A DNA stretch of 44,018 nt, taken from positions 1-44,018 of IMG/VR virus record IMGVR_UViG_3300048848_000270. One strand, written 5' to 3'. Each line of letters starts with the position of its first letter. Positions within the stretch are counted from its first letter, which is position 1. Made by a program: the position numbers and the translations under genes. Origin of the DNA: a virus. Its lineage: Duplodnaviria; Caudoviricetes. Positions 3,539 to 43,949 of the stretch are shown in pieces. The notes beneath the pieces are model-generated. The model did not search any database. It saw only the letters and a program-made list of their open reading frames with translations, and was not told where the DNA came from.

Positions 3539-4233
3539 TAGAATGCTTCCTTCTTGGTTTCGACTTTGACGCCTTCGATCTGGCGCAGCTTGAAATTCCG
3601 GCGGACGTACTCTTCGATGAAAGCCGTCATCGCATCGCGGTCGTTGCGGGCGATCCAGTTGAGCGCGTCTTTGTGGCTTTCGATCTCGTAGACCTGCACG
3701 GTGCGCATTCCCGCGACGGTATCCTTCGCGGCGCGAGCCACGACTTTCGCGGCCTTGCCTGCCTCTTTCATCAGGTCGTCGGCGTTCCGCTGTTCTTCGA
3801 TATTCGCGGCACTGGCGGCGATGTGAGCCTGCCGTGCCGCTTCCGCCTTGGCAGCGGCCTCCGCTTCGGCAACGCGTCGCGCTTCCTCTTTCTCGGCAGC
3901 AAGGCGTGTCTTGTACGGGGCTTGCGCCGCGACGAGGCATTTCACCTGCCGGTCAAGGTCGTCCTGGGTAGGCTTCCACCGTGCGACTTCGGACTTCCAC
4001 ACCTCATGAAGCGGCTTGGTCGCTTCGTCCCGAGCGGTGTCGACGGCCTTTCGCGCGGCCTTCAGCTCCTTCAGCAGGTCGTCGGTAGCCTTGAGTTGCC
4101 CGTCATTCTCGACAGTCGCCCCATCCAGCCAGTTGCCGACTTCCTCCAGAATGCCAGCGTAAGGCTCAAGAGCGAGGTCGATCGGATCCGGCGGGAAGTT
4201 GCCGCCAATCACGGCGCGTGCGTTCGTTGCCAT
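3538..4233 (-). CDS. Coiled-coil phage protein between erf and ssb
   Basis: Ala/Glu/Lys-rich helical 231-aa ORF, translationally coupled to ssb. Confidence 0.8.
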
Positions 4234-4244
4234 CGTCGCGGCTC

Positions 4245-4922
4245 CTAGTAGGGAATTTCGTCGTCAAGCATCGCAGCGGCCGGGGCGTCCGTAGCCGTCC
4301 CCAACTGGCGAACCGGCTGCTTCGCGATCCACGCCTTGCACTCCTCGAAGAACGCGGCGGGCATCTCGGGGATCGAAGGAATATTGCCCTTCCGACACAA
4401 CGTCTTGGCGTCGATGTTCTTAGCGGTCGCGAGCTGCATGATCTCTTGGCGCTGCGCATCGGTGATGTGCTGCACCTTGGCGAGGTTTTCGACGGTTTCT
4501 ACAGAGGCACGCCTTGCGGGGGCTGGCGCGCTGGCAGCATTGCCGTCGTCATCCTCAGGGCACACGCCCACGACCGAGGCGAGCGCATAGCGGCGAGCAT
4601 ACGTCACCGCGGAACCGTAGCCCTGCGCGTCTACCTTGCTGAGCGGGATGGAGAGAGGCGCCCGCATCCACTCGCCGCTTTCATGGCAAAGCTGCGTGGT
4701 GAGCGTCATCCGCCCGTCGATCATCTCCCCGGGGAACTGGAGGACCGACATACCGTTCGCGACCAACTGTTCGCGGCAGGCTTCCCATACGCTGCGCAGA
4801 TCGGCGTACTTCGTCCCCTTAAAAGCGGGGTTCGCCTTGCCCTTGACTGCGCCTTCAACGGACGCCTGCACCTTGGACATGGCAGCGGCGAGCGCGGTGA
4901 TGCTTTCGCTCTGTTCGATCAT
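4245..4922 (-). CDS. erf: ERF family single-strand annealing recombinase
   Basis: NPAFKGTKYADL and QGYGSAVTYARRYAL...EDDDG ERF signature; acidic DDEIPY tail. Start ATG 4922. Confidence 0.92.
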   Translation of the reverse strand: MIEQSESITALAAAMSKVQASVEGAVKGKANPAFKGTKYADLRSVWEACREQLVANGMSVLQFPGEMIDGRMTLTTQLCHESGEWMRAPLSIPLSKVDAQGYGSAVTYARRYALASVVGVCPEDDDGNAASAPAPARRASVETVENLAKVQHITDAQRQEIMQLATAKNIDAKTLCRKGNIPSIPEMPAAFFEECKAWIAKQPVRQLGTATDAPAAAMLDDEIPY

Positions 4923-5284
4923 CAGAAAATCTCCATAAGCAGGTCGTCGGAATCGGCGCGCTCGTACTCGCCGTCGATTTCTTCGGGGAAAAAACAGTCG
5001 ATCTTTCGACCGCGACACTCAGCCTTGTGGCACCACCCGAAACCGCCTGTCTTCGTGATGCCGATAGCTTCGAGCGCATCGAACAAGCCGGTGATGTCGA
5101 TCACATCAACTTGCCGGATGCGATAGAACAGGAGGTCGCAATCCTTGCGGGGGCCATTCTTGTAGAGAAGCCCGCCAGTCAGAGCGACGTGGCACCCGTA
5201 GGCCGGGCAGATGGCTTCGATCTGGCGGCATAGTTCGATGGCGTCGGCCTGTTGCCACGCCGTGATGTTCGCTTGCGCGTTCAT
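4922..5284 (-). CDS. Minimal Pol-beta-fold nucleotidyltransferase-like protein
   Basis: ALTGG-x9-DCD motif plus a third Asp in KIDCFF. Confidence 0.65.
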   Translation of the reverse strand: MNAQANITAWQQADAIELCRQIEAICPAYGCHVALTGGLLYKNGPRKDCDLLFYRIRQVDVIDITGLFDALEAIGITKTGGFGWCHKAECRGRKIDCFFPEEIDGEYERADSDDLLMEIF

Positions 5285-5511
5285 TTCGTATCTCCGAGTT
5301 GCGATAGCGATGGTCGCCGAATGGCCGAGACGGGCACCGGCTCGGGGCGTAGCCCGACAAGCGCGGGCGCGGAGCGCATCGCCGGAACATCCCTGCCCAG
5401 CGCCGCATCAACAGCCTCAGGCTTAACCCAAGCAGCCAAGAGCAGAGTGAGGGCTATGCCGGTCGCAAGAGCAGCCAGGCACCAGAGCCCATCCTTACTT
5501 ACTTCAACCAT
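5281..5511 (-). CDS. Small membrane protein
   Basis: One hydrophobic segment; overlaps neighbouring genes. Confidence 0.55.
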   Translation of the reverse strand: MVEVSKDGLWCLAALATGIALTLLLAAWVKPEAVDAALGRDVPAMRSAPALVGLRPEPVPVSAIRRPSLSQLGDTK

Positions 5512-6866: not shown

Positions 6867-8006
6867 TTATTTTCGAACGGCTTTTTCCACTCCTAGAATC
6901 TTCCGTCGCGCCCACGCATTCGCAGGCGCTTCGATCAGTTCGTATGAAACCGCCGCAACGACTATCACCGTCACCAACATGAGGGCGGAGAGTGTGTCGC
7001 CGATAATGGGGTCGGCGCCGGCAACTTGCTCGCCGTTGACCTTGCGAACTAGATCCGTCGCCCCGAACCGCCGTTGTGCCAGTTCAAGGACGTTGTACGC
7101 GCGGTACACGATGAACAGGTGGACCATGTATATCGAGAAAGAGATTTTCCCGAGGAACAGCGGCCCGCGTGTCAGCAAGGCGCGACTGACCAAGCCGCCC
7201 TGCTGCGCGAATACGAGGATGGTGACCGCAAACACCAAGGGGACGGCAACCGAAAGCGGCGTTGCCCCGGCGATAGAAACTGCGGCGATCGTCGCGAGGA
7301 CGACGGTGACCTCCGTAACCGTGGCGAGACCTACTTGTCGTATCCGCGGTATCCAAGGGAAGGCGTAGAAGCACAGCACGCCTATGGAGAACCCTAGCAG
7401 GCACCTCGCTAGCGCACCGTCGTGGAACACGTTCAGATAACGATCGGTAAGGAGTAGGAGATAGACGGCGCACGCAGTCGCGATCAGGGCAGCCACGGGG
7501 ACTAGATAGCGCCCCAGAAAGCTAAAACCGACCGCGAACACAAGGTAGGCCCATACCTCGACGGCAATGCTCCAGGCTGGTCCGTTCCACGATGTGCCGT
7601 CCGGCCCCACAAACGTCTGCACAAGGCCGATGTTGGCGACAAGCAAGCCCGGGCTGTAATCCCCGCTAAATGGCACGTGGTTCCCGGCCTGCGGTATCTG
7701 CGTGGTCGCCAGCTCGAATAGAACGAACACCGCCAGTACGACGAGATGCAGTGGGTACACACGACCTAAGCGCAACAGCATGAAGCGGCCGATCGGGAAT
7801 CCCCCCGCCAGCTTGTTCCCGTAGCTGGAGGCGATCACGAAACCGCTCAGCACGAAGAAGAAGTCCACGAACAGGAAGGCATTGTGGATAAGCGGGAGGC
7901 TGCTGATCAGGCCAGTTGTGCGGAAGTGATAGACGACGATCATGCAGGCGCAAACGCCGCGCAGGCTGTCTAGGGCACCAAAACGGTGCTTAGTGTTGGC
8001 CTCCAC
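6867..8006 (-). CDS. Acyltransferase-3 family membrane O-acyltransferase (lysogenic conversion)
   Basis: LDSLRG, VDFFFVLSGF, RLGRVYP, WSIAVE, LGKISFSIYMVH and SYELIE motifs; multiple TM helices; 10 bp downstream of cI. Confidence 0.93.
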   Translation of the reverse strand: MEANTKHRFGALDSLRGVCACMIVVYHFRTTGLISSLPLIHNAFLFVDFFFVLSGFVIASSYGNKLAGGFPIGRFMLLRLGRVYPLHLVVLAVFVLFELATTQIPQAGNHVPFSGDYSPGLLVANIGLVQTFVGPDGTSWNGPAWSIAVEVWAYLVFAVGFSFLGRYLVPVAALIATACAVYLLLLTDRYLNVFHDGALARCLLGFSIGVLCFYAFPWIPRIRQVGLATVTEVTVVLATIAAVSIAGATPLSVAVPLVFAVTILVFAQQGGLVSRALLTRGPLFLGKISFSIYMVHLFIVYRAYNVLELAQRRFGATDLVRKVNGEQVAGADPIIGDTLSALMLVTVIVVAAVSYELIEAPANAWARRKILGVEKAVRK

Positions 8007-22774: not shown

Positions 22775-24471
22775 TGATCGGTATCTTGTCTGGCGTCGTT
22801 GCAGGCGGGGGCGGGGTCAACGCCGTCACGTTCACGACGCAGCCGACCGTAACCCCATCTAGCGGCACCGCAGGCCAGACGTTCACAGCAACTCCGGGTA
22901 CATTGTCGAACGGATCGATCACGTCACGCGAATGGCGCTTAGCGGGCAACGTCGTCAGCACCGCGCTGACCTACGTTTCGACTACGGCTGGCTCGCTGAC
23001 GTATCAGGAGTTCGCCGGCAGCGTCGCGTCGAACCTGATCGCTGTGACGGTTGCCGCTCCTGCCGCAACAGCGCTGCCCAAGTCTGCGCAGATTGTTGAT
23101 CAAATGTCGGCGGACAGCATCACGCAGGCAAATAACTCTTCCGTCACGTCGCTGCCCGGAACGAAGGGCGTGCTGACGCTCATCACCGATCCGACGAACA
23201 ACGGTGGCACGGGTCGCAACCCGACCTATCTGACCAACCGCTTGAACGGAAAGCCCTCGATCAAGTTCGATAGCACGATCCGGCAGTCTCTTTCGTTCGG
23301 TCGTCCTGCCGCGCTGGTCAGTGCGCTGAACTCGACACAGGCAGCTATGCTTTTCGTGTTCCGCGCGGTCGGCGCACCGAACACCAGCCAGTCCCCGGTA
23401 TTCTCCAACACGACCGGTAACCTGGACACATGGATCGTACGGGATGCGTCGTTGTCGGGTAGCTATACCGACTATATCCCCGACACCCAGACCGGTTTCC
23501 AGACGATGCTGATCGTCAAGGACACAGCGTCCAGCCCGTCGCGGAACCGCATCTTCCTCAACGGTATGCCGGTCGCGCATCAGGAGAATCCGTTCTCCGC
23601 TGGCGGTTCGGGGGACTATCTTGTCGGTCGGGGTGACAACGGCGGCAACGGCAGCAACTCCGACTTCTTCACTAATTTCGAATTGCTCGACATGGTGGTG
23701 TGGTCAGGTGCGAAGTTCACGGCAGTAGACGGCGTTCAGGCGCATATGTGGGCCTGCGATAAGTATGCACAGGCATACCCGTGGGCGGGCTTGACGTACC
23801 TGGACGTGATCGCCGGGGACAGCATCCCGGCTGGCGCGGGCTACAAGACCCCGCACGTCAACGTCTACACCAACCTGAAGGCAACCCGCGCGATCGAGCA
23901 TGGCCGCGGGCTGATGACCGTCGCAGTACCCGGTATCTCGATGGCAGCGATGCAGTCGCAGCTTGCCGACGACTTGACCGGACTGAACACGCTCACCGGG
24001 TTGAAGTTGCGCATCGTGTTCGGCGAATGGGCCAACCAAGCCGGGTCACCGGGGAGTTCGCGCGTCACGAACGCACAGAACGTCCTCAATTCCCTCCAGT
24101 CGTTCCGCACTGGTGGCGGCAAGATCGGGCTTTGGAACAGCACGGCGTACGGCGGATCTGGCACCGGAGCGAGTGACGAGACGGCTACTGGCGTAACCAG
24201 TGCCGCAGGTACGGCGCGCGTTTCCGAATATGGCCCCGGCATCCAAGCGCTCACCTCGCTGTACGACAACTTCCAGAACGTCGCCGCGAATGCGAGCATT
24301 GGCGTCATCGGCGCCTGCCCGTATTACACGGTGCAGCCGTCCCCGCAGACCAACGACTTCTTCCTCGATGAGAAGCATCTGTCGAAACAGAACGCGGCGC
24401 AGACGGTGCAGGGGGGCGGCATAGCAGTGCTTGCGAACTTCTATACCGCCAGCTTCACGGCGATGCCGTAA
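22771..24471 (+). CDS. Virion protein: Ig-like + LamG-like + SGNH/GDSL esterase
   Basis: IAGDSI (block I), PG (II), WAN (III), DEKH (V); PTY...NGKPSIKFD lectin-type motif. Confidence 0.7.
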   Translation: MMIGILSGVVAGGGGVNAVTFTTQPTVTPSSGTAGQTFTATPGTLSNGSITSREWRLAGNVVSTALTYVSTTAGSLTYQEFAGSVASNLIAVTVAAPAATALPKSAQIVDQMSADSITQANNSSVTSLPGTKGVLTLITDPTNNGGTGRNPTYLTNRLNGKPSIKFDSTIRQSLSFGRPAALVSALNSTQAAMLFVFRAVGAPNTSQSPVFSNTTGNLDTWIVRDASLSGSYTDYIPDTQTGFQTMLIVKDTASSPSRNRIFLNGMPVAHQENPFSAGGSGDYLVGRGDNGGNGSNSDFFTNFELLDMVVWSGAKFTAVDGVQAHMWACDKYAQAYPWAGLTYLDVIAGDSIPAGAGYKTPHVNVYTNLKATRAIEHGRGLMTVAVPGISMAAMQSQLADDLTGLNTLTGLKLRIVFGEWANQAGSPGSSRVTNAQNVLNSLQSFRTGGGKIGLWNSTAYGGSGTGASDETATGVTSAAGTARVSEYGPGIQALTSLYDNFQNVAANASIGVIGACPYYTVQPSPQTNDFFLDEKHLSKQNAAQTVQGGGIAVLANFYTASFTAMP

Positions 24472-41637: not shown

Positions 41638-41878
41638 TTCGGCTCTCCTGTTGGGTGAGGGCGGCGGCAAGGTAACCGGCAGCGTCGTATCGGCTCGAAA
41701 CCGTTCCCTGAGCGATCCGATCGACGTGATGAATGCGTTGCACCAGATATTCATCATGGCCGTAAGCATCGACCATGCGCCAGTTCCAGCCCTCGTTGAC
41801 GGCGAGCAGTCGGTAAGCTGCGACCTCGGCACGCAAACGCTCCACCTCACCCGGCATATTGTTATCAGAGGAGGTCAA
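41627..41878 (-). CDS. Hypothetical protein
   Basis: EVERLRAEV...LAAALTQQE boundaries are typical of these modules. Confidence 0.6.
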   Translation of the reverse strand: MTSSDNNMPGEVERLRAEVAAYRLLAVNEGWNWRMVDAYGHDEYLVQRIHHVDRIAQGTVSSRYDAAGYLAAALTQQESRNAE

Positions 41879-41911
41879 TGGCTGGATCCTTCTGGATGGG
41901 GGTGGGGTGTA

Positions 41912-41988
41912 GGCGCATCCTTCGGACCGCGCTCGCAGGCTTCGCCCTGAGCCGCTTGAGGCGTCTCAGCCGTGCCGGTGCTGATCGC
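41912..41988 (-). repeat. Structured multi-hairpin element A
   Basis: GCGAT...CCGGCACGG CTGAGA CGCCTCAAGCG GCTCAG GGCGAAGCC TGCG AGCGCGG TCCGAAGGA TGCGCC. Confidence 0.75.
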
Positions 41989-41996
41989 TTGCGCGG

Positions 41997-42503
41997 TCAT
42001 TTCCCGTACATCGCCCAATTGGGTGCGACGGCGATGATTGCGCTAAAGTGTCCATCCACATGGCCCCAACTTTCGTTATACAAACGCCAGCCCCGACCGT
42101 TATCACCGTCGTGGTCGGGCTGCTTGCCGTAGTCTGCTTCCGCCAGCCATCTCGCGGCAAAGTCGGCCGCTCCAGCCGCGTCGAGCGTGAAGGGCAACGC
42201 AGTCTGGTCCCCGCCTTCAGGTTCGCTCGACTTGTAGCGATTGTCGTAGAAGACGAGGCGCAGGGGCTTCGGCTCGCGACCATATTTGAATGGGGGACGA
42301 AAGTGCTTCGGCGACCCTTCCGGCGTGTCTTCGCGCTCACCGTCGAAGGCCGGGCGAATTGCGTAATGAGTAGCGCCCGGCTTCTTGTATTCGGGGCGAG
42401 GATTTGGCGGCATGACCAGCCCACGGGCATTCCACACCAAGGCAATAGCTGACGACAGGCCAGCCAAACCCTCGTGCGTCATATCAAAGCGGAAATTATC
42501 CAC
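41997..42503 (-). CDS. Hypothetical protein enclosed by the two structured elements
   Basis: 168 aa; RBS AAGGA; QPDHDGDNGRGW motif. Confidence 0.8.
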   Translation of the reverse strand: MDNFRFDMTHEGLAGLSSAIALVWNARGLVMPPNPRPEYKKPGATHYAIRPAFDGEREDTPEGSPKHFRPPFKYGREPKPLRLVFYDNRYKSSEPEGGDQTALPFTLDAAGAADFAARWLAEADYGKQPDHDGDNGRGWRLYNESWGHVDGHFSAIIAVAPNWAMYGK

Positions 42504-42517
42504 GGTACATTCCTTTT

Positions 42518-42598
42518 GCGATAGTGATGCCAGCTAGGCCGAAGACCCGTAGGGGCTGAGCCGCGAAGCGGTGGCAGCACGGGCCGTAGGCATCGCCC
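42518..42598 (+). repeat. Structured multi-hairpin element B (inverted homologue of A)
   Basis: GCGAT...CCAGCTAGG CCGAAGA CCCGTAGGG GCTGAG CCGCGAAGCGG TGGC AGCACGG GCCGTAGGC ATCGCCC. Confidence 0.75.
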
Positions 42599-43128: not shown

Positions 43129-43464
43129 TCATGCTGCGGTAGCCTTGGCAATGGCTGCACGGGCCCGGCGCAGATGGCCGAACGTCAACGGCAAATCTTT
43201 GACCTGCCCATCCTCGTCTTGAAACGCTCCGACGCTCTCGTTGTCGGGGAATTCGTCCATATCCACGTCCGCAGTCTCGATCGCCATCAAGTCACGCAGC
43301 GCCGCCAACAGTTCCGGAGCAGCAGCAATCAGGCGAGCATTGGCTAGCGTGTCTGGCCCTTGCGCCTTCGCGACATAGATGCCCCCGTTGCCAGTGCTGC
43401 CGATCTTCGCGAACAAAGGGCTATCAGGCTGCACGTTCCACGGTCCCGGTGTATGTCCGCTCAT
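43129..43464 (-). CDS. Phage hypothetical protein
   Basis: HTPGPW...ANARLIAAAPELL...ARAAIAKA. Confidence 0.8.
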   Translation of the reverse strand: MSGHTPGPWNVQPDSPLFAKIGSTGNGGIYVAKAQGPDTLANARLIAAAPELLAALRDLMAIETADVDMDEFPDNESVGAFQDEDGQVKDLPLTFGHLRRARAAIAKATAA

Positions 43465-43949
43465 GCCACGCACTCCGCTACTTGGTTGAGGTAAGCGATC
43501 TCAGCAAGGATGTCGTCGTGACGCGTGAACCACTCGCCGTGGAGGCGATGGGCCGCAAAGCGCTTGTGGTATTCCCGCTCTAGCGATGGCGCAGCTTGGA
43601 CGGACGCCCACACCGTCAGCGGATAGGCATTCGCCAGTTCTAGATCGCGGAGGCGAAAGGACAAGCGGGTGGCGTATCCAATCTTGATGGGGCCGTTCTC
43701 TGGCCCGATGAAATAGATCGTTGCGAGCTTAGGAGGCGATCGGTCCTGACGCTCCCAAGGGGCCAGCCCGGTGTATCCGAAAGGCTTGGTGTACGTCGGG
43801 AAGCGCCACTTCCCATCAGCGTCAAGCTGCTCGGGGCCAGTGATGTAGACTTCGCCGCCCATTAATATGGACCTCGCTTCGTGCGACGAGAGCGGCCAGT
43901 CTTTCAGTGTTGTTAGGCGCGGGTATCCGCTATCATCCTGCTCAGCCAT
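43461..43949 (-). CDS. GIY-YIG-like (T5orf172/MUG113) domain protein
   Basis: IYFI...PIKIGYA...RL...LEREYHKRFAAHRLHGEWF; RBS GGAGG before MAEQDD. Confidence 0.85.
   Translation of the reverse strand: MAEQDDSGYPRLTTLKDWPLSSHEARSILMGGEVYITGPEQLDADGKWRFPTYTKPFGYTGLAPWERQDRSPPKLATIYFIGPENGPIKIGYATRLSFRLRDLELANAYPLTVWASVQAAPSLEREYHKRFAAHRLHGEWFTRHDDILAEIAYLNQVAECVA

Follow-up and report, generated by a model that had tools for sequence, protein, structure and literature searches.

Why is one accessory gene of a temperate phage bracketed by two inverted copies of a structured DNA element? The question is raised by positions 41,912–42,598 of IMG/VR record IMGVR_UViG_3300048848_000270, analysed here over its whole 44,018 nt (the window). 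At this locus a single reading frame, the cargo gene, lies between element A and element B (Table 1). An earlier interpretation made without database searches (the sequence-only reading) took A and B for the ends of a non-autonomous cassette, recognized as folded single-stranded DNA (ssDNA). According to the sequence comparisons described below, A and B may be a signal, read by the host, for the initiation of second-strand synthesis. An inward-facing pair would then define a copyable unit, which would move between phages by short-homology recombination and not by a transposase. We put the probability of this explanation at about 0.5.

The element is about 82 bases long. A family covariance model built from 51 copies, A and B among them, gives 74.0 bits for A and 53.9 bits for B, and the best unrelated match in the window gives 14.9 bits. 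The homology of A and B is thus present in the sequence, as had been claimed. The two elements at the locus were correctly recognized, whereas the third copy, C, had been overlooked. A 26-nt likeness of positions 5262–5287 to the A/cargo junction was considered as a further element, and was rejected by the covariance model. Element A starts with GCGCA-A-GCGAT at 41994, and element B starts with GCGAT-A-GTGAT at 42518. The element is closed by a stem between its first five bases and its last five, which are TGCGC in A and ATCGC in B. The register of the skeleton proposed earlier was slightly off, as the GCGAT of A matches the GTGAT of B and not the first GCGAT of B. The four free hairpins of that proposal are replaced by one closed structure, in which the terminal stem leads to a three-way junction with hairpin 4, then to a stem with an A.G mismatch, and then to a four-way junction. 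The corrected skeleton reads GCG-NN-A-GNG-AT-N...hairpin 1, stem GAG-A-C/G-G-CTC with hairpin 2, hairpin 3...N'-AG-CN'C-G, hairpin 4, N'N'-CGC, with a prime marking a base that pairs with its partner. The 5' end of A is located 2 nt from the cargo stop codon, and that of B 14 nt from the GTG start codon.

Single-sequence folding is unremarkable (z of −1.31 for A and −0.76 for B), so the structural evidence rests on covariation. Both sides change in 22 of 27 pairs in a MAFFT alignment of the 51 copies, in which the two core stems are 99% paired. When 95 distinct copies were aligned to the model, to which this alignment is fitted and whose seeds it partly overlaps, both sides changed in 24 of 27 pairs. 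The earlier statement that the stems vary and keep pairing is confirmed. The structure of the element, and the rule by which its copies form inverted pairs (described below), are real and well supported. GNA triloops are an established feature of DNA. They account for 347 of 546 triloops on the element strand and for 8 on the complement, counted over the 173 copies without the seed pattern among the 274 distinct copies collected. GNYA loops are as common as GNRA loops (81 versus 75), and UUCG is found in 1 of 405. These results agree with the preference of the sequence-only reading for ssDNA over RNA. The element very probably acts as folded ssDNA, a conclusion shared by the explanations based on an initiation signal, on recombination ends and on PriA.

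The family was collected by pattern scans followed by the covariance model. In IMG/VR, 57 of 59 loci were confirmed, and in a further viral scan all 36 new loci. In a scan of genomes 33 of 77 loci were confirmed, and the rest were chance matches. A search of phage records with blastn gave only short chance matches for A, and one copy in a Sphingopyxis phage for B. Rfam gave no match at the family threshold for A, B or a copy from an integrative and conjugative element (ICE), in accordance with the earlier remark that the motif belongs to no named family. Named hosts are mainly sphingomonads, with other proteobacteria. Each of five sphingomonad genomes contains 2–5 matches, which is a lower bound with 150 candidates scored per genome. 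One 388-nt contig filed under Streptococcus (L185) shares both element and flanking sequence with the copies from Stutzerimonas ICEs, and is likely a contamination.

The inverted arrangement of A and B is the rule in tailed phages. In 50 tailed-phage records, each chosen for holding one copy and searched whole, 237 copies were detected (1–16 per record). The pair statistics cover the best 150 of these 237 matches, in 48 of the 50 records. Among 49 neighbours closer than 1.1 kb, 44 are minus-plus with the 5' ends inward, three are plus-minus and two are parallel. Permutation of the strands gave a mean of 15.9 minus-plus neighbours, and none of 10,000 permutations reached 44. The paired copies amount to 88 of 150 (59%). 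The two ends of a pair tend to be of different type: GGG is found at 49 of 80 upstream ends and GCG at 52 of 80 downstream ends, and both ends share the closing stem in only 3 of 80. Three phages with 13–16 copies (L266, L267 and L268; G044, G054 and G052) carry consecutive cassettes in runs within one region.

The enclosed interiors (82 distinct, 0.1–1 kb) are mainly unrelated to one another, so the sequence-only reading was correct in expecting inverted pairs around variable genes. The reading frame begins before the upstream element, reading through its complement, in 47 cases, and begins inside, as in the window, in 19. It ends past the downstream element in 62. The counts of frames and end types come from a heuristic that mis-called the strand in some cases. 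In-frame fusion of the cargo to element-encoded peptides is frequent, resulting in stereotyped terminal peptides such as ...FDPSR, ASIPSA and AIEARRAETGTGSVHESAV. The cargo, which an invertible switch would present in both orientations, is co-directional with both flanking genes in all 16 clear cases of the 82 interiors (62 unclear, four at edges). Unpaired copies are sense to genes in six cases, antisense in four, and unclear or divergent in 37. In support of the sequence-only reading, homologues of the cargo gene of the window are free of the element at 81 of 82 loci, many of which are on short contigs. The single bracketed homologue (L066) shows 51% identity and has end types other than those of the window.

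The element is also found in single-stranded contexts. It lies on the gene strand in nine IMG/VR microvirus records with capsid or Rep domains, several of which are related, and exactly one match was detected in each of the five complete records searched whole. The GenBank gokushovirus KT264808 has one copy on the gene strand, filling the VP1–VP2 gap. In total, the element is on the gene (virion) strand in 10 of 10 microvirus records. In the F plasmid, of which 35 kb were scanned, two copies are located at 58091–58174 (63.2 bits) and 63479–63562 (49.8 bits), corresponding to 23092–23175 and 28480–28563 of L288. They run antisense to the leading genes, with ssb and ygeA/ygeB downstream, and fall within the duplicated Frpo block (559 nt, 89%), next to Frpo2 and Frpo1. 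The copy on the Frpo1 side has lost one base in the inner stem. Both copies of an IncFII plasmid (L287) are antisense to the leading genes, and a MobQ plasmid agrees. In a Tn4371-type ICE (L265) all three copies are on one strand and, as seen from the relaxase, beyond oriT, where oriT is placed in traF–traI (PMC11448139, source available in part). By the convention that the relaxase is transferred last (PMC11541004, likewise available in part), the copies in F, the IncFII plasmid and the ICE would lie on the transferred strand. In four ICEs (L258–L260 and L265), one copy forms the border of a variable accessory region upstream of a DUF932 gene, and this copy is preceded by further conserved hairpins and by promoter-like boxes reading into the cargo.

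In microviruses the element occupies the coding strand, and in leading regions the template strand, a difference that fits a signal on ssDNA and not on mRNA. As it occurs once in ssDNA phages, and on the plasmid strand that is likely transferred first, it is likely a start signal for the second strand.

Comparison of related loci suggests how the phage pairs may move. The same cassette (93% identity) is flanked by unrelated genes in two phages (L018 and L030). Outside the folds the homology continues for about 35 nt on one side and 24 nt on the other, reaching the start-codon regions, and the outer borders are not set at the element ends. In these phages, short ribosome-binding-site/start-codon linkers, repeated within each phage, are located at module borders (L018 2313–2344 and 2512–2546; L030 669–728). 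In a further case, two pairs from one phage have near-identical ends but differ in cargo and flanks (L013/L014). The movable cassette of the sequence-only reading is supported by L018 and L030. The empty-site alleles that it proposed to look for in relatives were not found for the window cassette.

From these observations the following steps are proposed. Priming would start at the fold or just 3' of it, and then run back through the fold. An inward pair would place one priming site at the 3' end of each strand, so that one exposed strand would suffice for copying the interval. Strands may be exposed at the replication fork, by strand displacement, or in intermediates coated with ERF or single-strand binding protein (SSB). 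The released piece would reinsert via its two tails, each with a ribosome-binding site and start codon, and the ERF protein of this phage (Table 1) is a candidate for such reinsertion via short homologies. New cargo would be attached to the 5' (inner) end of the element, through template switching or illegitimate joining, and would be retained when in frame with a start codon.

Several observations weigh against this explanation. About 40% of the listed copies are unpaired, C among them. The F copies are located about 90 nt 3' of the end of the listed ssiD/Frpo sequence (PMC11541004, supplement 7), the element is contained in none of five known Frpo/ssi sequences, and it is outside the listed ssiD and ssiE. 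The covariance model gives no match to the characterized initiation sites of phiX174, G4 (origin 3970–3998) or ColE1. If the signal loaded a primosome (PriA/DnaB), movement would be driven outward and not across the cargo. In L196 the upstream element appears to have entered a gene at about codon 5, and in L050 the same gene has no element, which would also fit insertion of a single element. The inner junctions are sharp and the bases at −1 and −2 are pyrimidine-rich (88% and 75%), as might equally be expected if an enzyme cut at this point. In one sequencing run, possibly the source of the window, the cassette was not detected in excised, amplified or empty form. Relatives of the flanking genes (7 and 2 loci) contained no element by regular expression, and the flanks were not joined.

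The most serious alternative, though an unlikely one, is that the folds serve as sites of recombination, or of cutting and joining (attC-like or HUH-like), at which a trans-acting enzyme joins the 5' end of the element to foreign DNA, and that the pairs are non-autonomous cassettes. This was the primary role in the sequence-only reading, and the comparisons do not support it. Besides the sharp, pyrimidine-biased inner junctions and the variable cargo, it would account for near-identical ends around different interiors and flanks in one phage (L013/L014), and for inner junctions that are shared while the distal stems differ (L021/L032 and L011/L247). However, nothing is bracketed by the single copy of microviruses, and the copies in conjugative elements are specific to ssDNA contexts and biased to one strand. 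The outer borders are unfixed, 24–35 nt outside the folds, and target-site duplication was not detected (mean shared word 3.0 versus 2.9 when shuffled, 82 pairs). A Pfam scan of the 103 open reading frames (ORFs) of the window revealed a phage integrase only, with no transposase or second recombinase; the lack of a dedicated recombinase had been stated correctly, though an enzyme might act in trans. Among 30 cargo frames scanned, two HNH nucleases and no recombinase were found. Two specific systems were rejected: an integron attC cassette, as 44 of 49 close neighbours are inverted and an integron integrase was not found among the 103 window ORFs, and a miniature inverted-repeat transposable element (MITE) or DDE non-autonomous transposon, as neither target-site duplication nor precise outer ends were found.

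Somewhat less probable still is a site of the primosome-assembly type, at which PriA/DnaB would be loaded. An inward pair would load two helicases outward and serve as an auxiliary origin or restart point, with the cargo hitch-hiking. The single-strand contexts fit this proposal as well as they fit a second-strand start, and the closing stem, flanked by unpaired bases, is similar to a fork. Element B and phiX174 nt 2311–2368 (L261) share GCCGAAG, CTGAG and AGCRCGG in the same order (0 of 200 shuffles, with the pattern chosen after seeing both), and this phiX174 region is the PriA-bound minus-strand origin region (10.64898/2026.07.25.740675, PMC5778457 and PMC9865509, sources available in part). 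In contrast, the covariance model matches neither phiX174 nor ColE1, an origin needs neither up to 16 copies per phage nor one-gene spacing, and the turnover of the cargo is left unexplained.

Regulation of transcription, either by a promoter module that acts on single strands together with Frpo or by an RNA structure in the early operon, is improbable. The element adjoins both Frpo copies of F, and among the 400-nt Frpo* candidate windows (PMC11541004) one contains a complete copy and two contain part of a copy; the text and table of that source, as far as available, do not single out the element-containing candidate. B and C, which are on the template strand, also lie a short way upstream of ribosome-binding sites. 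On the coding strand of microviruses, however, a single-strand promoter would yield antisense RNA, there would be no reason for a further copy behind the gene, at its 3' end, and the GNA triloops and the loop frequencies given above speak for DNA. Least probable are MITE-like independent insertions, in which pairs would arise by accident and be filtered by selection at the ends of genes, for although many copies are single and L196/L050 resembles an in-frame insertion, the 44:3:1:1 orientation ratio, the 59% pairing at one-gene spacing and the different upstream and downstream end types (by heuristic strand calls) oppose them.

Compared with known systems, the proposed initiation signal is closest to the single-strand initiation (ssi) signals, namely the phiX174 primosome assembly site, the G4 minus-strand origin, ColE1 ssiA/ssiB, F ssiD (Frpo) and ssiE. 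These are likewise folded ssDNA, and the likeness extends to the one copy in the virion-strand intergenic gap of microviruses and to the putative transferred strand of leading regions. The three short blocks of B in the phiX174 site, found with a pattern chosen after both had been seen, would also fit an initiation signal. The element differs in its closed three-way plus four-way junction, and in forming inverted pairs around accessory genes of double-stranded DNA phages. On present evidence it seems to work like an ssi signal, yet by sequence it falls outside the characterized ssi classes. RSF1010 ssiA/ssiB is an inverted pair of priming sites on opposite strands, with a plasmid-encoded primase and a fixed origin, whereas the element is apparently host-read and brackets variable genes. 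The Frpo single-strand promoters (PMC9849209 and PMC11541004, both available in part) adjoin the element in F, on the same strand and in the same duplicated block, but the element is a separate module of about 82 nt and occurs without Frpo in phages.

REP/REPIN-RAYT and the non-autonomous derivatives of IS200/IS605 are short structured repeats with inverted doublets and single-strand recognition, as in the element. Ssn/NTS (PMC11893778, available in part) is grouped with short structured repeats recognized as single strands. Relative to all of these, the element is low-copy in host chromosomes, its fold is far more complex and its cargo is gene-sized; no HUH or Ssn gene linked to the element was seen. 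Integron attC cassettes and the DUF1874 motif (PMC5737381, available in part) are also structure-conserved, sequence-variable ssDNA tightly flanking promoterless accessory genes. Arrays of attC have direct repeats, one site per cassette and an integron integrase, whereas the element has two inverted ends and imprecise outer borders.

As a variant of single-strand DNA signals, and in its use as cassette ends, the element is possibly new. Full-text literature searches gave no paper describing the motif; the F copies could be described in earlier ssi work (Nomura 1991; Masai and Arai), which is outside those searches. A wider proposal, which we consider only tentatively, is gene capture without a transposase. 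A host-read priming signal, taken over from ssDNA phages and conjugative leading regions, would serve in facing pairs as self-copying ends that spread gene-sized cargo among temperate phages, and the ends would trap gene-sized DNA and supply the start codon and the element-encoded terminal peptides. Many microviruses would then use this signal as their minus-strand origin, and F would use it as the second-strand start beside Frpo.

Table 1. Positions of the elements and associated features in the window
Feature	Position	Strand	Description
Element A	41913..41994	-	Downstream cassette end, on cargo coding strand; closing stem GCGCA/TGCGC, inner stem GCG/CGC
Element B	42518..42596	+	Upstream cassette end, on cargo template strand; closing stem GCGAT/ATCGC, inner stem GTG/CAC
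Element C	5301..5382 (model match 5299-5384)	+	Third copy, partner not detected; 69.9 bits, outside training set
Cargo gene	41997..42503	-	168 aa; whole gene, own ribosome-binding site directly behind B
C-rich spacer	41860..41912	-	Behind A, runs to start of next gene
ERF single-strand annealing protein	4245..4921	-	Pfam/PHROG scans

The window is a complete 44-kb virus record of a temperate P22-like phage. The integrase, ERF, SSB, NinB, repressor, primase-helicase, terminase and P22-type portal and coat genes were identified by Pfam/PHROG scans. The A/cargo/B locus lies amid small accessory genes on the minus strand, which, according to the gene order, probably continue the early leftward operon over the record ends. 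C is antisense to the same operon. Its 5' end is located 16 nt upstream of the ATG of ORF 4922–5284, and the last part of ORF 5281–5511 is encoded by its complement. The C-rich spacer is presumably the same sort of tail that moved with the cassette in L018/L030. The cargo protein belongs to a widespread, conserved phage family of unassigned function (148 homologues), with a PDHDGDNGxGW motif and invariant HDG-N-G. No Pfam or PHROG family and no tblastn match in phage records were obtained. Its structure prediction is confident (predicted local distance difference test, pLDDT, 92), and the model gave no PDB fold by Foldseek at E<=0.001. An O-acetyltransferase gene at 6867–8006 (minus strand), beside the repressor, is a possible lysogenic-conversion (receptor-modifying) gene. 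A T5orf172/GIY-YIG-like gene at 43461–43949 (minus strand) lies 0.9 kb from B, with no evidence linking it to the element.

The element provides a candidate start site for two questions, that of the minus strand of non-phiX microviruses, whose start is left open in PMC9865509 (available in part), and that of the conversion of the transferred strand of F-like plasmids and Tn4371-type ICEs to duplex. Both candidate sites are amenable to testing in Escherichia coli. Recurring pseudo-domains in phage hypothetical proteins would be explained as read-through of a DNA element. The inward pairs offer a possible mechanism for the gene-by-gene mosaicism in the early regions of temperate phages.
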